DNA of 64,000 nucleotides from Candidatus Magasanikiibacteriota bacterium (GCA_016182085.1 JACOYB010000004.1:75976-139975), one strand, 5' to 3'; positions 10,114 through 32,186 are shown, counted from the first letter of the stretch. Numbers and translations are program-made. Notes: generated by a model from the letters alone, not told the origin.

Positions 10114-11133
10114 TTAAAGTCCGTGAGATTTTTTGTACTTTTCCGCCTCCAAAATTATTTTTCTGGCGACCGATAATGTATAAGCCGGACGAGTACCCAG
10201 CGCGGTTTCGTTGCACAACATAATACCGTCGGCGCCATCAAGCACGATGTTGGTAAGGTCGGAAATATCCGAACGCAGAGGAATATAATTGTAAATCGTG
10301 CCTTCTAGAATTTGAGAAGAAATAATGACCGGTTTTTTATATTTTTTAATAGTTTTAATCGCATCTTTTTGGAAAATTCCCAATCGTTCAAATGGCATAT
10401 CCAGACCCAGCTTGCCGCGGTTGAGCAGAACCAAATCATAAAAATCATCTTGGCAAATGGCTTCTAAATTTTCTTTGGCCAACCGGCTTTCAATGCGAGC
10501 GATAATTTTTGGCCGCCAGCTAAAGTTGGATAACTGTTTGATTTTTTCGTTTACCGCCGGACTGATAAACGGAATGGCTACATATTCGGGAGAAATTTCT
10601 TCCAGCTTGGCCAGGACTTCCTGGCAGCGGTTTATATAGGCTTCGTTTTCGGTATTTTGCGCAATATGAATGCTGAGTGTTGACTGTAAAATGCCCTCGT
10701 TTAAAGCCTTAACTTTTACGGTTTTATCATTGATAATTTCGGTTATTTGTAAGGCGATTTTTCCGTGGTCAATGCTGGTAATTTGGTTGATATACACCTG
10801 GTTGCCAAGTTCGGGAATATGCACATATACATGATCATCAACCATAGGCTGGTCATGATACGCGGAGTGTAAAATAAGCTCTTCATTTTCCATAACCGTG
10901 CGTGGCTGAAGTGGCCCGGCCAGGCGAATTTGGTTGGAAGGAAGGTTGACAATAATTTTGGCCGAAGAATTTAGTTCATCAATTACTTTCATGCCGATTT
11001 TAATGCGGTCTATGGTATTTTCAGTCGGGCCATACGAAAAACTGTACCGCAAGGCATCTGCTCCGGCCAAAATAATTTTTCTGATTTTATCTTCGGAAAA
11101 GTTATTGATGCCAACGGTAGCAATAATGAACAT
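10114..11133 (-). CDS. pyk: pyruvate kinase, short form lacking C-terminal regulatory domain
   Basis: IIATVGINNFSEDKIRKIILAGADALRYSFSYG and NRGKLGLDMPFERLGIFQKDAIKTIKKYKKPVIISSQILEGT...LDGADGIMLCNETALG align with the pyruvate kinase barrel and active-site regions. Confidence 0.72.
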   Translation of the reverse strand: MFIIATVGINNFSEDKIRKIILAGADALRYSFSYGPTENTIDRIKIGMKVIDELNSSAKIIVNLPSNQIRLAGPLQPRTVMENEELILHSAYHDQPMVDDHVYVHIPELGNQVYINQITSIDHGKIALQITEIINDKTVKVKALNEGILQSTLSIHIAQNTENEAYINRCQEVLAKLEEISPEYVAIPFISPAVNEKIKQLSNFSWRPKIIARIESRLAKENLEAICQDDFYDLVLLNRGKLGLDMPFERLGIFQKDAIKTIKKYKKPVIISSQILEGTIYNYIPLRSDISDLTNIVLDGADGIMLCNETALGTRPAYTLSVARKIILEAEKYKKSHGL

Positions 11134-11149
11134 ATAGTATATTTTATTT

Positions 11150-11287
11150 TGTCATTCCCGCCGAAGCGGGAATCTAGTATCCGGTTGGGGTTGTCTCTGG
11201 ATTCCCGCTTCGGCGGGAATGACAGGTGTAGATCCCTCCGCTGTGGTCGGGATGACAATGAAACAATCCCGCTTGTGGCGGGACTGC
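11150..11287. repeat. palindromic hairpin-pair repeat element, copy A1 (two units)
   Basis: tgtcattcccgccgaagcgggaatc...gattcccgcttcggcgggaatgaca, then agatccctccgc...ggtcgggatgacaatg plus hairpin tcccgcttgtggcggga. Same family as 30902, 32057, 36567, 45190 and 45780. Confidence 0.85.
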
Positions 11288-11294
11288 ATTATTT

Positions 11295-11969
11295 TTAGGC
11301 GCTAATTTTTATGGAAGGACCCATGGCAGAGCAGACAGTTACGTTTTTCAGGAATGTTCCTTTGGCTGTGGCCGGTTTGGCTTTGCGCAACGCGTCCAAG
11401 AGCACACCGATATTTTCTTTTAATTTTTGTTCACCGAAACTGATCTTGCCTACGGCTTGGTGGACATTGCCACCGTCGTCATTTTTGAAAGTTACCTTAC
11501 CGGTTTTTAGATCGGCGATCATTTTTTTAAGATTGGTGCCAACGGTATCGCTTTTTGGGTTAGGCATCAAACCTTTTGGACCCAAGACTCTGGCGACTCC
11601 GGCTAGTTTAGGCATCATGTCCGGAGTAGTTACGGCCACTTCAAATGCAATTTTACCGGTATCTTTTATTTTTTTGATTTCTTCTTCTCCGTATACGAAA
11701 TCGGCTCCGGCTTCTTTTGCTTCCTTTTCTTTTTCTGGAGAAACGAAGGCGGCTACGGTTTTGGTTTTACCCGTACCGTGCGGCAACACAATAGTTGCGC
11801 GAACTTGCTGTTCGGTCTTTTTTGTATTGATGCCCAAATTGGCATGCAATTCCACGGTGGCGTCAAATTTTACGCCGGAAGTTTCCGCGAGTAGTTTTAC
11901 GGCCTCATCCAAGGAATAGACTTTATTTTTTTCTACCTTGGCGCTGCTCGCTGCCATTCTTTTTGACAT
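11295..11969 (-). CDS. rplA: 50S ribosomal protein L1
   Basis: 224 aa. MSKRMAASSAKVEKNKVYSLDEAVKLL...GKISFGEQKL typical of L1. It is not adjacent to rplK here. Confidence 0.93.
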   Translation of the reverse strand: MSKRMAASSAKVEKNKVYSLDEAVKLLAETSGVKFDATVELHANLGINTKKTEQQVRATIVLPHGTGKTKTVAAFVSPEKEKEAKEAGADFVYGEEEIKKIKDTGKIAFEVAVTTPDMMPKLAGVARVLGPKGLMPNPKSDTVGTNLKKMIADLKTGKVTFKNDDGGNVHQAVGKISFGEQKLKENIGVLLDALRKAKPATAKGTFLKNVTVCSAMGPSIKISA

Positions 11970-12028
11970 ATTTTTAAATTGTTAGTGGTGCAAACCCCGA
12001 GGTGTCCCAGGTCCCACTTAATGGGGTG

Positions 12029-12057
12029 AGTATATAGGAAGAGAGTGGTTTTGTCAA
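12029..12057 (-). promoter_or_regulatory. sigma70-like promoter for rplA (TTGACA-17-TATACT on minus strand)
   Basis: Reverse complement of 12029-12057 reads TTGACA, a 17-nt spacer, then TATACT, ~60 nt upstream of the rplA ATG. Confidence 0.5.
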
Positions 12058-12073
12058 TAAGAAAGAGGGGAGT

Positions 12074-12102
12074 TTGACAAATGGCTAATCTTAGTGTATA
12101 GT
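12074..12102 (+). promoter_or_regulatory. sigma70-like promoter (TTGACA-17-TATAGT), divergent from the rplA promoter
   Basis: TTGACA at 12074-12079, 17-nt spacer, TATAGT at 12097-12102. Drives the 12168 small ORF. Confidence 0.55.
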
Positions 12103-12167
12103 ATAGCCTTTCGTGAAATTGGCCAACCCCTGGCCACGGTGCAACTGGCAAGTTTTCGGGGGAAAAC

Positions 12168-12422
12168 TTGCTTAAAACGGAGCACGTACTCTTGGAAGAT
12201 CTTGAAATTGAAACCTGGGTTCCTGATATCCTTAGCGAGGTACAGTGTCCCAATCCAAATTGCGGCGGGCGGGCGGAAGAAGTGGCCGAGAATATTATCT
12301 GGTGCGCCAAGTGCCAGAAGCACTACCCGCCCCCACCCTCAATTGCGGTTGGTTTGAAAGAGCTGATGGCGATCACTCAAGCTCAGGACTGCAGCCGAAT
12401 TCCGCCGCAACTGGCTGAATGA
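12168..12422 (+). CDS. small zinc-ribbon protein (CxxC...CxxC), hypothetical
   Basis: 84 aa with CPNPNC and CAKC pairs downstream of a consensus promoter. Sits in a GC-richer accessory block. Confidence 0.45.
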   Translation: MLKTEHVLLEDLEIETWVPDILSEVQCPNPNCGGRAEEVAENIIWCAKCQKHYPPPPSIAVGLKELMAITQAQDCSRIPPQLAE

Positions 12423-12513
12423 AGCCCGGGCAATCCGCGAAAGAAGTTTTTTCGCCGTCGTCCTAGCTTTATAAAAATAACTTTTGTTTTTATAAAACTG
12501 GCGGCGAATTTCT

Positions 12514-12566
12514 TCTCAAAAAATAATTTTTACAAAACGCCGTTTTTATAAACGGTGTTTTGTTTT
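12514..12566 (+). repeat. terminator-like hairpin module, copy 1 (direct repeat with 13055-13100)
   Basis: aataatttttacaaaacgccgtttttataaacggtgttttgtttt repeated almost exactly ~540 bp downstream. Each copy is followed by a TTGAC(A/T)-17-(TACGAT/TTTAAT) promoter. Confidence 0.6.
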
Positions 12567-12626
12567 TTAAGTTTGACAAAACAGTGAACTCTGATACGAT
12601 AAAATTAAGTTGTAGGGGGTTGTTCC

Positions 12627-12938
12627 ATGAGAGTAGTAATTTCTCGGGAGAAGCTTCTGCTCGTGCGTACCGTGGAGTGTGGTCGTTACGTCATACTGCG
12701 CCAGGTGACCAGGCTAAACGGTCGGGTTCTCTCAAGGTTGAGTTTTCATCTTGGCGAGAAGTACCAAACATCTTTTTCAAAGGTGTTTACCTTGGAGCAG
12801 GCACAGGCGCTGTTCAAATCGGCAAAACTGCAATCCACACTCAACATGAGTGATAAAGAAGTAGAAGGCTTGTATCAACAACTGGGGGAGTTGTTCCCAG
12901 ATCCAGCGTCGTATTTGACGCAAGCTGGATCTAACTAG
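12627..12938 (+). CDS. hypothetical protein
   Basis: 103-aa ORF downstream of the first repeat/promoter module. No motif recognised. Confidence 0.35.
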   Translation: MRVVISREKLLLVRTVECGRYVILRQVTRLNGRVLSRLSFHLGEKYQTSFSKVFTLEQAQALFKSAKLQSTLNMSDKEVEGLYQQLGELFPDPASYLTQAGSN

Positions 12939-13054
12939 CAGCGTATGCACAGCGCCAGCTCATAGTGGTGCGATCAAGAGCTCTCGTTATCGCATCACCT
13001 TTCTGCAAATGAAAAAGTTGTTTATAGAAAGGTGATGACGAATTCTTGATAAGA

Positions 13055-13100
13055 ATAATTTTACAAAACGCCGTTTTTATAAACGGTGTTTTGTTTTATT
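13055..13100 (+). repeat. terminator-like hairpin module, copy 2
   Basis: Near-identical copy of 12514-12566. Followed by TTGACT-17-TTTAAT and the 13155 ORF. Confidence 0.6.
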
Positions 13101-13154
13101 GACTTGTTTTAATAAATAGAATTTAATACCCATATCACCAACTGGGGGATTGAC

Positions 13155-13589
13155 ATGAGCGATTTGGTCAAAGAAAAGTGGTTCCAAGTGCTTTATGTTC
13201 TAATGTCGGTGCCTGGTTTGTGGAATAACCTGCAACGGCGGGTCATCTTCACTGCCTTCAGCACGGATCCCGAAAGGCCGCTATATGGGCGGGTGCGTAT
13301 CTACCTGATCAACTCCCTTGAACAGGTGTTGCAGGTACACGCGCAAAATAGGGATTACATATGGCTAACAGATTTTTCGCCGTATGTAGAAGAAGTGGTA
13401 AATAAAGATCGCTTTCCTCGGCATAACTGCGAAGGCTTGCCGGAAGTGGAAATGCACGAAGATACGGAATTGGGCGCCTGGGCGCTTGGTATGGTGGAAT
13501 TTCAAATGGAGCAGCAACGCAAAACTGAAAGAGAGGCCGAAGAGGCGCTGCGAAAAGTTGAACAGAGCCGCAAAAAAGCAAAGGCCTGA
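13155..13589 (+). CDS. hypothetical protein with charged C-terminal helix
   Basis: 144 aa. C-terminal EQQRKTEREAEEALRKVEQSRKKAKA. Confidence 0.42.
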   Translation: MSDLVKEKWFQVLYVLMSVPGLWNNLQRRVIFTAFSTDPERPLYGRVRIYLINSLEQVLQVHAQNRDYIWLTDFSPYVEEVVNKDRFPRHNCEGLPEVEMHEDTELGAWALGMVEFQMEQQRKTEREAEEALRKVEQSRKKAKA

Positions 13590-13830
13590 CGTCTTGATGT
13601 AGTGAATGGGGTTGTAATAAAACAACCACCTGACACTGCGTTACTACCCATAGTAAATGGATAATAACGTGGAGGATACAGGTGGTTGTTTTTTATTTAA
13701 ATTATTTTTGATTTATTTTGATACGGCGGGGAAAGCGGCGTCTGAAAAGACACCGCTTTCTGACGGCTGAATTTCGGCATCGTTCGCATTGCGAACTGTG
13801 CCAGTGGGTGTTTCAGCCTGTAGGGGAAGC

Positions 13831-14121
13831 TCAGTCCAACGGCTCGCCGCTCCTTGAACGGCGCCGCCGATCGTCGATCTGCCACGACTGCAACTGCGGG
13901 ATCTGTTCCCTGGCAGGAGCGGGCTGTGCCGGACCGGAAGAGGTCTGGCTGGTCTGCGCCGGCGGCTGGTCGGTGGAATTGTTGTCTTGGGTAGTCGAAG
14001 GATCTTGGTCGATCGAATCCCGTAGCAGCTGTTCCTCGGAATACTTGTGGTTCGGAAAATGAGTCACGGTTTCCCCCATGGTCGGTTCAAATTGGTTTGC
14101 CAGAACCGTTCTAGCAAACAC
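13831..14121 (-). CDS. hypothetical low-complexity (T/Q/P-rich) protein in GC-rich patch
   Basis: 96 aa. The plus-strand ORF 13718-14062 is a likely shadow. An upstream minus-strand TTGCAA-16-TATAGT promoter is present. Start codon uncertain (GTG or the internal ATG at MGETV). Confidence 0.3.
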   Translation of the reverse strand: MFARTVLANQFEPTMGETVTHFPNHKYSEEQLLRDSIDQDPSTTQDNNSTDQPPAQTSQTSSGPAQPAPAREQIPQLQSWQIDDRRRRSRSGEPLD

Positions 14122-14163
14122 ATTAATTTACACTATAATATTTTTATTTAATTTGCAAGTGTT

Positions 14164-14192
14164 AAAAAACACCGTTTTCGGCGGTGTTTTTT
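14164..14192. terminator. bidirectional rho-independent terminator hairpin
   Basis: aaaaaacaccgttttcggcggtgtttttt, a perfect stem flanked by A and T runs. Confidence 0.6.
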
Positions 14193-14210
14193 AATTCTAT
14201 AAAATATATC

Positions 14211-14336
14211 TTATTTGCGTTTCTTTTTCGCAGCCTTTTTTTCAAGCATTAATCTTTTTGCCGCCAATCTCTTTTTGGTTTTAGGAGAATGTCTTGATTT
14301 AGTTCTTTTTTTTAGTCCGGTAGGTCTTTTTGCCAT
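14211..14336 (-). CDS. small very basic protein (41 aa), possibly ribosome-associated
   Basis: MAKRPTGLKKRTKSRHSPKTKKRLAAKRLMLEKKAAKKKRK. Not in the ORF track (under 60 aa). Lies in an otherwise empty 250-bp gap. Confidence 0.35.
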   Translation of the reverse strand: MAKRPTGLKKRTKSRHSPKTKKRLAAKRLMLEKKAAKKKRK

Positions 14337-14439
14337 ATAAAATATTTATTTAATAATACAATTATTATACATTATTTTTTAATTTAAGCAAAGCGGTCGC
14401 GGCAGTTTATGATAATATGCAAAATTTTGCAACTGTTTT

Positions 14440-15384
14440 TTATTTTCCTTCATACGCCTCTCTAAGTTTTGCAATATCAAACTTTTTCATCGGTAAAAAT
14501 GCCTGCGTTACTCGGTTAATTTGTTCGGGCGTGCCATTTTGCATCATCTCGTCCATAGCCGAGGGGACGATCTGCCAGGAAACGCCATATTTGTCTTTGA
14601 GCCAGCCGCACTGCTCGGATTTGGGCACAGCCGAAAGTTTTTCCCAATAGTAATCAATTTCTTCTTGGGTATCACAATGTACGATAAATGAAACCGCTTC
14701 GTTAAATACAAACTTGTGCATGGCGCTGCTTCCATCCATTGCCGCAAACCACTGACCCTCAAGCTGAAAATCGGTAAGCATGATCGCGCCTTCTTTGTTT
14801 GATTCCCCGCCCGCATCGCTACGGGAAGCATTGTGGGCAGGCATGCCAGCGGGATAGCGGGCAATTTGTCCGCGCTTTGTATTTTTGAATACGGAGAGAT
14901 AAAAATTTGTCGCTTCCTCTGCTTTGTCGCCTATATCGGTAACAAAAAGTAATGATGGAATAATGGGCGGTCGTCTTTCGCCTTCTGGATTAGTAAGAAT
15001 CAACTGCCAATCCAAACCGTATTTATCGCTCACCCAGCCATATTTTTCAGCGAATGGGTATTTCTGGAATTCCATCCGTACGTTTCCGCCATCGGAAAGT
15101 TTATCCCACAGTTCACCGATTCTCTTGCGCGCCTCTGTATCCTGCGAAGGATCAAAATTAACCATGAGGGAAATTGATGGGTTGAATTTAAAGAACGGTC
15201 CGGCGCTGATGGCTATAAACGAATACCCCCAGAGTTTAAATGATACTATATCGCAGTCACCGGATGGCGTGTCGCGGATTGTTTTTACATTCGTAATTTT
15301 TGAATCCGGGAACAGCGAGGTATAAAATTCGGCAGCCTCTTTGGCTTCTTTGTCGTACCATAAATGCGGAATAATTTTTTGCAT
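14440..15384 (-). CDS. tandem VOC-superfamily (glyoxalase/PhnB-like) domain protein
   Basis: Two repeated halves, each with IIPHLWYD / W..DKYGV.WQI-type motifs seen in PhnB-like proteins. Confidence 0.65.
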   Translation of the reverse strand: MQKIIPHLWYDKEAKEAAEFYTSLFPDSKITNVKTIRDTPSGDCDIVSFKLWGYSFIAISAGPFFKFNPSISLMVNFDPSQDTEARKRIGELWDKLSDGGNVRMEFQKYPFAEKYGWVSDKYGLDWQLILTNPEGERRPPIIPSLLFVTDIGDKAEEATNFYLSVFKNTKRGQIARYPAGMPAHNASRSDAGGESNKEGAIMLTDFQLEGQWFAAMDGSSAMHKFVFNEAVSFIVHCDTQEEIDYYWEKLSAVPKSEQCGWLKDKYGVSWQIVPSAMDEMMQNGTPEQINRVTQAFLPMKKFDIAKLREAYEGK

Positions 15385-15546
15385 AGTATTATGGTTAATT
15401 TATAACGCGCAGGTGGCTGCGATTAAGAAATTATACATCTGATGCTGGGGCAGGTAAAGGCAAATTTTTGGTAAAAATATAGAATACCCATTTGGGTATC
15501 CTATGATGTATCGGTTTCGTTCCGGTGGTAAGGTAAATCAGTTTGC

Positions 15547-27048: not shown

Positions 27049-27156
27049 ATTTTAAAAGGCTGGCAGTACTTTTCAACAAACTTTTTGAGTAGTTGAATTT
27101 CTTGCCAGCCTTGTTGCCCTCTCTTTAGATCGGACGATATTCCAATCCATGTGCTG

Positions 27157-27699
27157 CTACTTGGTCGCGGTCGCTCGCGCCGAGCGGAAGTGGCGGGCGC
27201 AGGCGCAGCGGTGCGTTGGAAACAGTTCGCCCAAGTGTTGGGCCAGAGGTGAAAGCGGATGCCGCAACTGCATTGCCTGCATGAAGCCGGTAACGAGTAC
27301 GCATTTCGCCTCTTCGGGGCAGAAGACTATGACTTTGAGCGCAGCCAGCTTCTGCAGCTGCTCCCCGCTCATTTCCTGCACACCTTCCACCTTGCCAACA
27401 GCGTCAACTGCCAGAGCCAGATTATCAAGGTATGCCTTGCCGGCCTCACCTTGATTTCTGAAGAACTCAATTGAATATCTGCACGCTATGGCCGTTCCTT
27501 CGTCAAGGAAATCTGGCTTCACCAGGAACACAACGTCGTTCGGCGTTGGAATCTGAGCGATCGGAGTTCCGCTCGTATTGGCCGGTGAATAGGTAAAGAG
27601 CACGGGGTTGTTGTTCATGATTGCCTCGCGTGGTGATGGGTACACCGTAGCTTGTACTACGGTGATTTGAAAAAGTTCAACCTGGGTATTTATATCCAA
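27157..27699 (-). CDS. hypothetical protein encoded in a GC-rich (~55%) island
   Basis: 180 aa (or ~153 aa from MNNNPV). Composition contrasts sharply with its neighbours. No motif recognised. Confidence 0.4.
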   Translation of the reverse strand: MDINTQVELFQITVVQATVYPSPREAIMNNNPVLFTYSPANTSGTPIAQIPTPNDVVFLVKPDFLDEGTAIACRYSIEFFRNQGEAGKAYLDNLALAVDAVGKVEGVQEMSGEQLQKLAALKVIVFCPEEAKCVLVTGFMQAMQLRHPLSPLAQHLGELFPTHRCACARHFRSARATATK

Positions 27700-29261: not shown

Positions 29262-29300
29262 AAAAAACAGCCTTTGATGAAAACGCTGTTTTTTGTTTTT
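29262..29300 (+). terminator. rho-independent terminator after proS
   Basis: aaaaaacagcctttgatgaaaacgctgttttttgttttt. Confidence 0.6.
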
Positions 29301-29342
29301 GCCTCGACCCATGCTTCACAGCATTGGTCGAGGCTTGTACAA

Positions 29343-30023
29343 CTACCTCTGGCCCTTGGGGTCCCGTCCGTCAGGTGCGGCCTTGCGGCGCGCCTTGGCC
29401 CTGTCCTTCTTGAACTTTTTCCAGTCCTTGGCACCCGTGCTGGTGCTGGTCGTGGTCTGCTGCGGCGAGTTCTCCTCGTACCACTTCGCGTCCTGGCAGG
29501 CATCAGCCATGCAGTACTTGAAGTAGTTGGGAATCATCGCCTTGCAGTCCGGACCAGCGCACTGGTGGCCACAGTCAGAGCAGTAGAGCCCACCGTCCGC
29601 CGGAATCTCGACACTGCACCCCTTGCAGGGCTTGGTGGCGAATTCCGAACAGTTCGGGCAGTAGGTGTGCCACACCGGAATGGTCCGGCCGCATCCACCC
29701 CAGCAGGAATGAACGCAGTCGTCGCACAGCCCGGAGCGGTGGCCCAGTGGCAGCCGGTTGGTGCACTGCGCGCCGGTATCCGGGTGCTCCCGGTTGCGAC
29801 ACTGCTTGGTGGCCGGAGCCATGATCTTCGGCGGCGGAACCACGGGGGGTTCCACCACGGTCGGCTTCATCTGCTTGAGCTGTACCTCCTGGGACAGCGG
29901 GTTGGTGTCGGTCGTCTCCGGGGCGTTGGCCTCGGAGGTGGTGACGGACATCTGGTTGTTGATGGCGCCGGTGAGGATCTGGCCGAGGATGTTGACCAGG
30001 GAATCGGTGAGACGAGCGAACAT
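29343..30023 (-). CDS. cysteine-rich multi-zinc-ribbon protein in GC-rich island
   Basis: 226 aa from MFARL. AAGGAG SD 6 nt upstream. About eight CxxC/CxxxxC pairs (CDDCVHSCWGGCGR, CPNCSEF, CKGCSVE, CSDCGHQCAGPDCK). The plus-strand 350-aa ORF is a GC-rich shadow. Confidence 0.5.
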   Translation of the reverse strand: MFARLTDSLVNILGQILTGAINNQMSVTTSEANAPETTDTNPLSQEVQLKQMKPTVVEPPVVPPPKIMAPATKQCRNREHPDTGAQCTNRLPLGHRSGLCDDCVHSCWGGCGRTIPVWHTYCPNCSEFATKPCKGCSVEIPADGGLYCSDCGHQCAGPDCKAMIPNYFKYCMADACQDAKWYEENSPQQTTTSTSTGAKDWKKFKKDRAKARRKAAPDGRDPKGQR

Positions 30024-30325
30024 GGCATTCTCCTTGTTGAACTCGATGTTCTTCGTAGAAGCGCGCGGGTTGGACCGCACACTTCTTGGAGAGATGGCAC
30101 GCTGTTCATCTCAGCAGGTTGTCATGTGCGGCGTAAAGACAAATTTCATTGGGATAGTCGCATAGATCACCTCGTGGTTAAGTTGTACAGAACGCGGAAA
30201 CCCCGCCTATATATGGCAGTTATTCCGACAGAAAGAAGTTTAAATCCTTTCTCTTGGAACAACAAGAGAGACTAAACAATGTATCATAAAACTCTGGCTT
30301 TGTCAACCGTATATGCTCGCACAAA

Positions 30326-30901: not shown

Positions 30902-30974
30902 TGTCATTCCCAACGAATTGGGAATCCAGTATCCGGCCGAATTGTCTGGATTCCCGCTTGCGGCGGGAATGACA
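30902..30974. repeat. palindromic hairpin-pair repeat element, copy A2
   Basis: tgtcattcccaacgaattgggaatccagtatccggccgaattgtctggattcccgcttgcggcgggaatgaca. ~80% identical to the A1 first unit. Immediately 3' of trpS. Confidence 0.85.
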
Positions 30975-32056: not shown

Positions 32057-32186
32057 TGTCATTCCCCTAACAAGGGGAATCCAGTATTCGATCGGGTCGA
32101 CTGGATTCCCGCTTTGGCGGGAATGACAGTTGGGACAGAGATCCCTCCGCGGAGTTTATACCCTTTAGGGTGGTCGGGATGACAAT
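32057..32186. repeat. palindromic hairpin-pair repeat element, copy A3 (two units)
   Basis: tgtcattcccctaacaaggggaatccagtattcg...ctggattcccgctttggcgggaatgaca, then agatccctccgcggag...ggtcgggatgacaat. Lies between rlmH and trpS. Confidence 0.85.

Follow-up and report, generated by a model that had tools for sequence, protein, structure and literature searches.

What kind of locus is a 2.2-kb block of four small genes that adjoins rplA, the gene of ribosomal protein L1, in a metagenome-assembled genome of Candidatus Magasanikbacteria? The block occupies positions 12029-14200 of a 64,000-nucleotide stretch of DNA (GCA_016182085.1 JACOYB010000004.1:75976-139975), which is called the window below. 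Its host belongs to the candidate phyla radiation (CPR), bacteria that are uncultured and much of whose gene content consists of small hypothetical proteins. An earlier note on this DNA had described a horizontally acquired mini-island of independently transcribed small genes, in which a duplicated cassette suggested modular exchange. The features that it listed were all recovered. Comparison with related genomes points to another origin. We consider it probable that the block is a clade-specific variable locus of monocistronic orphan genes, the alleles of which would be exchanged by homologous recombination via conserved regulatory modules.

The gene rplA lies at 11295-11969 on the minus strand (Pfam Ribosomal_L1, E 2.5e-53). 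The block is therefore upstream of rplA and not, as had been stated, downstream of it. Its four open reading frames (ORFs) correspond in the deposited annotation to HYT15_00710 (ORF1), HYT15_00715 (ORF2), HYT15_00720 (ORF3) and HYT15_00725 (ORF4), with ORF1, ORF2 and ORF4 named "hypothetical"; the record that carries ORF3 is a 410-kb contig. Together with a fifth frame to their right, they are as follows.

12192-12422, plus strand: ORF1, 76 amino acids (aa) from TTG 12192
12627-12938, plus strand: ORF2, 103 aa, member of a small orphan family
13155-13589, plus strand: ORF3, 144 aa, core orphan family of the locus, predicted alpha/beta head with a long C-terminal helix
13831-14067, minus strand: ORF4, 78 aa from GTG 14067, low-complexity and T/Q/P-rich
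14211-14336, minus strand: ORF5, 41 aa, Lys/Arg-rich (MAKRPTGLKKRTKSRHSPKTKKRLAAKRLMLEKKAAKKKRK), conserved right-hand anchor, 72-100% identical in relatives

Relatives were collected by a scan for L1 in 185,579 species genomes, which gave 80 loci (labels of the form L0xx denote relatives' loci). The families of ORF2, ORF3, ORF4 and of a zinc-ribbon (Zn-ribbon) gene were found only in the interval between rplA and ORF5 of about 10 related Magasanikbacteria assemblies (L004, L005, L006, L008, L009, L055, L087 and L089-L091), and the locus is absent from more distant Magasanikbacteria. ORF3-type genes are present in L004, L005, L006, L087/88, L089, L090 and L091, ORF2-type genes in L004, L005, L087 and L090, and ORF4-type genes in L004 and L006, with the GC-rich ORF4-type patch kept in place. 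A Zn-ribbon gene of the pattern CxH...CxxCG stands on the divergent promoter in L004, L006, L008, L009, L055 and L089. The interval measures 1.2-4.3 kb and carries differing gene sets (L004-L010, L055, L087 and L089-L091); in other relatives it contains an FMN reductase, MsrA, a Cyt-b5 lipoprotein or unrelated genes. ORF5 is at least 90% identical in 9/10 relatives and 72% identical in L010 (L004-L010, L055, L087, L089 and L090). Since the same families occupy the same interval in about 10 relatives, the locus appears to be old, clade-specific and variable, and not a recent import.

The closest relative is L004, whose L1 protein is 98% identical, whose rplA differs by a synonymous divergence (dS) of only 0.08 and whose flanks have about 96% DNA identity; for the flanks together with the promoter and terminator modules, the values are 94-98%. 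A global alignment with L004, read in 50-nucleotide (nt) steps, gave the following mosaic.

11300-12049: rplA, its leader and its promoter, 94-100% identical
12100-12450: ORF1 and its 5' untranslated region (UTR), 28-44%, unrelated
12500-13049: terminator T1, ORF2 promoter, ORF2 and element A2, 88-100%
13050-13149: terminator T2 and ORF3 promoter, 76-84%
13150-13599: ORF3 coding sequence, 38-58% (38% in amino acids)
13600-13699: element C, 74-78%
13750-13949: ORF4 C-terminus and 3' flank, 38-55%
13950-14049: N-terminal part of ORF4, 82-88%
14200-14399: ORF5, 84-98%
14450-15400: 314-aa gene, absent from L004

This pattern supports the modular exchange proposed earlier: rplA and both divergent promoters have 94-100% identity, the promoter and terminator modules, like ORF2, have 88-100%, another gene stands in place of ORF1, and ORF3 retains about 50% identity in DNA and 38% in protein. 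The breakpoints at ORF3 are no more than about 15 nt away from its start and stop codons, identity dropping from 84% to 52% within 50 nt at the start and rising from 48% to 78% at the end. The alleles of L087, L089 and L090 match ORF3 of the window better (43-44%) than the L004 allele does (38%). Such divergence beside near-identical sequence argues against mutation in place and for replacement by a distant allele. The sharp steps, drawn from few genomes, would fit homologous recombination in the flanks.

Two further differences from L004 were seen outside the four genes. The 314-aa protein (14440-15384, minus strand) has two 3-dmu-9_3-mt domains of the glyoxalase fold, and L004 carries about 440 bp of other sequence in its place; on this comparison, the gene is a second indel in the same hotspot. 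On the other side, the pyruvate-kinase-like gene at 10114-11133 has a dS of 0.45 against L004, next to rplA with its dS of 0.08, and recombination mosaicism against L004 is therefore not confined to the block.

Promoters, terminators and 3' elements

The regulatory features of the block are listed below.

12057-12029, minus strand: rplA promoter, TTGACA-17-TATACT, 11/12 consensus matches, kept in all aligned relatives
12074-12102, plus strand: divergent ORF1 promoter, TTGACA-17-TATAGT, 11/12, conserved in L004, L005, L006, L008, L009, L055, L086 and L089
12573-12600, plus strand: ORF2 promoter, TTGACA-16-TACGAT with a TG extension, 10/12, conserved in L004, L005 and L087 (4 genomes with the window)
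13099-13127, plus strand: ORF3 promoter, TTGACT-17-TTTAAT, found by reading; TTGAC and ATTnAATA invariant in 8 genomes
12442-12516, plus strand: element A1, a long hairpin whose apex is variable but always paired and whose base, TTCGCCGyCG/yGGCGGCGAA, is conserved; covariation; z -7.5 for the A1 + T1 3' element
12532-12569, plus strand: terminator T1 (repeat copy 1) and U-tract; stem 12532-12563, 14 pairs followed by a T-run
12975-13048, plus strand: element A2, a diverged copy of element A after ORF2, conserved in L004; z -8.5 for the A2 + T2 3' element
13063-13098, plus strand: terminator T2 (repeat copy 2); stem 13063-13094, 14 pairs followed by a T-run
13619-13692, both strands: element C, a long hairpin between the convergent ORF3 and ORF4/ORF5; 5 compensatory pairs, folds on both strands
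14166-14190, folding on both strands: ORF5 terminator, a symmetrical A-tract, stem and U-tract, from a terminator scan and folding

The rplA and ORF1 promoters are placed back to back at the same position in at least 9 related genomes. They had been described as divergent and overlapping at 12029-12102; the divergent pair is present, with 11/12 matches each, and the two do not overlap, the -35 boxes being 16 bp apart. The TTGAC(A/T)-17 promoter reported behind each hairpin copy holds for ORF3, and the ORF2 promoter has a spacer of 16 instead of 17. Because six promoter-like sites were found in the region and 6.2 were expected from shuffles, consensus matches alone prove nothing; the promoters are credible because their positions are conserved. 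At a fixed distance from the gene, TTGAC and the -10 box stay unchanged in 4-9 genomes, while the spacers and the coding sequences vary. The block genes are probably strongly expressed.

An exact 39-nt repeat (12528-12566 and 13059-13097; about 45 nt with one indel; 0 matches in 100 shuffles) is the sole direct repeat in the block. The duplication of a 45-bp hairpin reported at 12514 and 13055 is therefore real, with starts that differ by a few bases from those positions. The copies lie downstream of the stop codons of ORF1 (12422) and ORF2 (12938), respectively, on the same strand as these genes. On its sequence and predicted fold, the duplicated hairpin is a Rho-independent terminator that forms the 3' half of a two-hairpin element. 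This element, of about 130 nt, consists of the hairpin A of about 75 nt, an A-rich spacer and the terminator hairpin. It follows ORF1 and ORF2 and was also found after ORF1/ORF2-type genes in L004 (twice), L006, L008, L086, L087, L089 and L090.

Covariation in element A and the terminator was tested with 6 sequences, using slid pairing partners and 500 shuffles as controls. According to the results, 97.7% of the cells were paired, compared with 48-56% when the partners were slid, and 14 pairs had changed on both sides, compared with 2-5 in the slid controls. None of the 500 shuffles equaled the observed pairing, compensatory counts or covariation score, and 3 equaled the pair-type count. For the terminator helix (helix 4), pairing reached 98.8% of the cells; two-sided changes were seen in 2 pairs and one-sided changes through G-U in 6. 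No similarity between genomes is left at the apex of hairpin A, which is nevertheless always paired. The base of this hairpin, AAGAAG-UUUU-UUCGyCryC ... GryGrCGAA-UUU-CUUCU, is nearly invariant, even where the genomes compared have only about 78% identity in their rplA DNA. The G-U pairs occur on the sense strand only; therefore, the structure appears to be selected in the mRNA and not in the DNA. The base of hairpin A is conserved beyond the needs of termination. The hairpin may also bind a protein or stabilize the mRNA, and its invariant base is a possible protein-binding site.

In L004, T2 keeps the outer stem (ACAAAAC/GTTTTGT) and has a different, compensated inner stem (ATTCTTC/GAAGGAT), like L008 and L006. 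For this reason, the identity of T1 and T2 in the window must be recent. It is best explained by a short gene-conversion tract that would have overwritten the inner stem of T2 in the lineage of the window.

Element C is also present in L004, L005, L006, L087, L089 and L090, and we read it as a bidirectional terminator. The bidirectional terminator reported at 14164 was recovered at 14166-14190. In Rfam, no family was found for the 3' elements or element C: at the gathering score only a tRNA was matched, and the E-value mode gave only generic sub-threshold terminator-like matches. A pattern scan for element A in metagenome contigs returned three loci, two of the L006 organism and one of an L008 relative, and the same scan of viral contigs gave no match. 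With a conserved promoter, a Shine-Dalgarno sequence and a covariation-supported terminator of its own for each gene, the block agrees with the independent transcription units of the earlier note.

These features suggest how the locus may change. Between the conserved anchors rplA and ORF5, in one Magasanikbacteria clade, each of the four genes would have a strong promoter of the sigma-70 type and a Shine-Dalgarno sequence rich in G, with a structured 3' end in addition for ORF1 to ORF3. Whole coding sequences would be swapped for very different alleles or for unrelated genes, with promoters and terminators staying in place. The conserved regulatory modules and the flanking genes would act as homology arms for what we infer to be homologous recombination, and gene conversion would have homogenized the two terminators of the window.

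The block genes and their products

ORF1 most probably begins at TTG 12192, after the Shine-Dalgarno sequence GGAG (12179-12182), in agreement with HYT15_00710. The 84-aa CxxC zinc-ribbon ORF described before is the longest frame, and the better start shortens it to 76 aa. The zinc ribbon has the form CxxxxC...CxxC (CPNPNC...x15...CAKC). Searches of Pfam gave only weak, sub-threshold zinc-finger matches for ORF1, and no relative of the exact protein was found. Its 5' UTR (12103-12191, plus strand) contains a GGGGG-loop hairpin (12148-12171), and a similar G-loop hairpin of the form GCAAryTT-GGGG-AAtTTGC is also found upstream of the Zn-ribbon genes in L004, L006 and L089. As seen by eye in these three loci and the window, the leader of the gene at the Zn-ribbon position is about 90 nt long and has two hairpins, the first with a CCCC loop or segment and the second, just before the Shine-Dalgarno sequence, with a GGGG(G) loop. 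Such a leader could allow loop-loop or anti-Shine-Dalgarno pairing and thereby translational control.

ORF1 and the relatives' Zn-ribbon genes agree in position, promoter, element A and the G-loop hairpin of the 5' UTR, and L004 has an unalignable Zn-ribbon gene in place of ORF1. A family model built independently of ORF1 does not detect it, and ORF1 may be a nonhomologous replacement. An assignment of ORF1 to the relatives' Zn-ribbon family was withdrawn on this result; the match behind it had been circular, the window sequence having been part of the model.

ORF2 and ORF3 have the 103 and 144 aa stated in the earlier note. Homologues of ORF2 were found in L004 (93% identical), L005, L087 and L090. 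Purifying selection on ORF2 is shown by its coding sequence, with a dN/dS of 0.24 against L004 that is similar to that of the neighboring genes. At their C termini, the ORF2 and Zn-ribbon families have a common pattern, V-x-T-L-E/D-Q-A ... L-x-E-L-F-P (profile comparison probability 70%, E 4e-5). It is plausible, if not secure, that ORF2 is a distant paralogue of the Zn-ribbon family. From a large database, a merged ORF2/Zn-ribbon profile retrieved two relatives, both already known. Elsewhere in the window, a 180-aa ORF (27157-27699, minus strand), in a GC-rich patch at 27101-27400, ends in VFCPEEAK...LAQHLGELFPTH and has no Pfam match; this ending is similar to the C-terminal motif that the ORF2 and Zn-ribbon families have, with a weak hhalign comparison (E 0.018, probability 2.5%).

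The ORF3 family comprises 9 representatives among 1.84 billion proteins in an exhaustive profile search, which newly added five relatives; four matches to long proteins were disregarded, as they were due to short repeated stretches. In a set of 5.8 billion proteins, the ORF3 query returned itself only, and a 4-sequence profile returned the same four proteins. Members of the family are 29-53% identical to one another. The AlphaFold2 model of ORF3 reached a predicted local distance difference test (pLDDT) value of 85 with 9 sequences, compared with 48.6 with 4 sequences. No fold match to the model was found with Foldseek against PDB and BFVD (BFVD, nothing at E<=0.001).

In the case of ORF4, the N terminus M(T/S)H(F/L)PNH and the preceding G-rich Shine-Dalgarno sequence are common to L004 and L006. 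Its start is therefore most likely GTG 14067, although the longest ORF extends to 14121 and would encode 96 aa. As described before, it is a T/Q/P-rich low-complexity protein in a patch of about 60% GC: ORF4 has 60.8% GC, and the 241-nt window over it is within the top 0.6% of the whole window. The protein is probably disordered. ORF5 has no family match and is absent from the deposited NCBI gene calls, being seen only as a Logan gene call; it could be an unrecognized small ribosome- or nucleic-acid-associated protein.

None of ORF1 to ORF5 has a significant match in Pfam, PHROGs, NCBIfam or PADLOC (PADLOC, none at E<=1; best PHROG for ORF3, E 0.17). Among the PDB sequence profiles, none matched the ORF3 profile or the combined ORF1/ORF2/Zn-ribbon profile. 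Three or four orphan families emerge at this locus as real genes, one of them with a confident predicted structure that matches nothing known. Our guess is that the block proteins are small accessory factors that bind nucleic acids or proteins.

Alternative explanations and comparison with known systems

Recent acquisition of a mini-island from a GC-richer donor, such as a phage or plasmid, would fit coding sequences of 48-61% GC in a genome of 42%, genes that are orphans and a locus that is absent from more distant Magasanikbacteria. The GC-richer composition reported before is real but mild: GC is 46.3% in the block and 42.4% on average (standard deviation 2.8), a difference of +1.4 standard deviations, 7.4% of equal-sized windows are as GC-rich, and the excess sits in the coding sequences. 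The same families, promoters and 3' elements occur in the same interval of about 10 related assemblies, with the GC-rich ORF4-type patch conserved in place. There was no DNA match in phage and plasmid collections and no phage tblastn match, and the roughly 10 kb around the block hold no integrase, transposase or tRNA. By this synteny, a recent foreign island is largely refuted, and we regard it as highly improbable. The toxin-antitoxin-like or phage-derived roles that had been suggested lead to a related proposal, in which the block is a toxin-antitoxin, anti-phage defense or counter-defense module, and its alleles diverged in place by positive selection in an arms race. Small proteins in a variable locus would suit this, as would an ORF3 that is 29-53% identical within its family beside an L1 that is 85-98% identical. 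However, neither PADLOC nor PHROGs gave a significant match, and the genes are monocistronic and convergent instead of operonic, 200-240 nt apart with a terminator and a promoter between them. The identity steps are too sharp for mutation in place at an rplA dS of only 0.08, and ORF2 is under purifying selection. We therefore reject the toxin-antitoxin, defense and phage readings, for want of a family match and of an operon, and rate such a module as improbable.

An integron-like cassette array, in which the hairpins are attC-like single-stranded sites and a site-specific recombinase swaps the ORFs, was suggested by two features: a long imperfect hairpin, conserved at its base and hypervariable at its apex, stands behind every ORF1/ORF2-type gene, and the replacement against L004 is gene-precise. 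Against it, the neighborhood holds no tyrosine recombinase, each gene has its own promoter, and the sense-strand-only G-U pairs with U-tracts are the anatomy of terminators. RYYYAAC/GTTRRRY core sites were not seen on reading the hairpin bases of the window and L004, and the breakpoints are in promoters and UTRs, not inside the hairpins. More widely, no recombinase domain was found among the ORFs scanned at about 1.4-30 kb, nor among the called genes of L001. The integron reading is thus rejected on the absence of an integrase, the separate promoters and the RNA-terminator anatomy, and we give it hardly any credence. A different concern is that the mosaic might be an artefact of metagenome assembly, with coexisting strains mixed at the repeated terminators. 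It stays a minor rival in view of the breaks that short-read contigs show at the 39-nt repeat: L001 begins at about 13068, and L002 and L003 are 1.1-kb pieces. Nevertheless, the order ORF3-ORF4-ORF5 of the window was reproduced exactly in three separate runs, the L006 arrangement was reproduced in two other records, and the replacement of ORF1 has no repeat on its left side. Even with mixed strains, two very different ORF3 alleles must exist at the locus in close relatives. We consider such an artefact quite improbable. Retron and CRISPR readings were dropped, as there is no recombinase or known defense-family protein and the terminator pair is the only direct repeat.

The variable locus with exchange via regulatory modules remains our preferred reading, and several points weigh against it. 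A Zn-ribbon hidden Markov model (HMM) built without ORF1 scores ORF1 at 3.5 bits, which is no detection, and the case for paralogy between ORF2 and the Zn-ribbon family is weak (the 70% probability above, and 4.7 bits in an independent HMM test). L001 begins inside T2, so that a mis-join of strains at the breaking 39-nt repeat is possible. The functions assigned to promoters and terminators are drawn from sequence and conservation, and the comparison covers about 10 metagenome-assembled genomes or short contigs.

Among known systems, the minimal mobile elements of Neisseria come closest to the rplA-ORF5 locus (Saunders & Snyder 2002, as cited in PMC1797815); they are presented there as alternative gene contents at syntenic sites with conserved flanks, exchanged by homologous recombination. 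The likeness lies in the differing small gene sets between rplA and ORF5, in the lack of mobility genes and in whole genes that are swapped or absent between close relatives. The present locus differs in that exchange appears to act on single coding sequences, with internal promoter and terminator modules as the apparent arms; natural transformation and recombination are putative here. It also differs in its CPR host and in a cargo of orphan small proteins instead of restriction systems or surface proteins. The terminators resemble other Rho-independent terminators in having a stem-loop and U-tract after the stop codon, with compensatory changes, and in the A-tract/U-tract symmetry at 14166-14190 and element C; unlike these, they are preceded by a second hairpin of about 75 nt with a sequence-invariant base. 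Integron cassettes with attC sites share the array of small, mostly same-strand ORFs, the imperfect hairpin after each and the content that varies between relatives. They differ from the block, which has no integrase, a promoter for each gene, RNA-terminator hairpins and no attC core motifs.

A bolder proposal, which we regard as speculative and unlikely, is that this is a dedicated CPR diversification site, where highly expressed proteins of new folds are kept polymorphic by gene-precise exchange. The promoter with the 5' hairpin and the element A base with the terminator would then be built-in arms, and the Zn-ribbon and ORF2 proteins might bind the element A base on their own mRNAs. If so, the proteins would be candidate strain-specific factors for interaction with the episymbiont's host cell or with phages. 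In any case, conservation and covariation here allow one to read the promoters, leaders and terminators directly in a CPR lineage, and whole-gene allele replacement sets near-identical genomes apart at this locus. Should the exchange be confirmed in populations, the locus would point to a site of strain-level diversification in these episymbionts and supply candidate proteins; if not, it is an ordinary variable intergenic region with lineage-specific genes.

The rplA leader and the surroundings of the block

In ribosomal protein mRNA leaders, L1 binds a site in its own mRNA that resembles its site in 23S rRNA. Between the rplA promoter and the start codon, the window has a structured leader of the following kind.

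11970-12028, minus strand: rplA 5' leader, conserved stem-loop GUGGGAyC - hairpin - GrGUUUGyACCAC, in about 24 Magasanikbacteria-type loci

Compensatory changes in its hairpin across these loci include CCUG/CGGG, CCCC/GGGG, UCCC/GGGA, UCUC/GAGA and CCUA/UAGG. The leader is thus structured and covarying, like autoregulatory ribosomal-protein leaders, and is probably the site at which L1 regulates its own mRNA. Unlike such leaders, it has no match in Rfam, and the binding of L1 is putative here.

Housekeeping genes surround the block. Those on the left encode GatB, thymidylate synthase, dihydrofolate reductase (DHFR), dTMP kinase, dUTPase, dCMP deaminase and the pyruvate-kinase barrel protein, and those on the right encode a PAS-sigma factor, a dehydrogenase and thioredoxin/DsbD proteins. 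Farther along, the most GC-rich patch of the window (29281-30100, about 64%) contains a Cys-rich 245-aa ORF (29343-30080, minus strand) with several CxxC pairs, a basic tail and no Pfam match.

A dispersed hairpin repeat, GTCATTCCCGCC(n)AAGCGGGAAT, has four copies in the window (11151-11173, 11201-11223, 30950-30973 and 32105-32127), with none expected by chance. L004 lacks the cluster found at 11140-11290, in the gap that separates the pyruvate-kinase-like gene from rplA, and a related insert was found in the rplA leader of L012. The repeat looks like an insertion of the repetitive extragenic palindromic (REP) or miniature inverted-repeat transposable element (MITE) kind.

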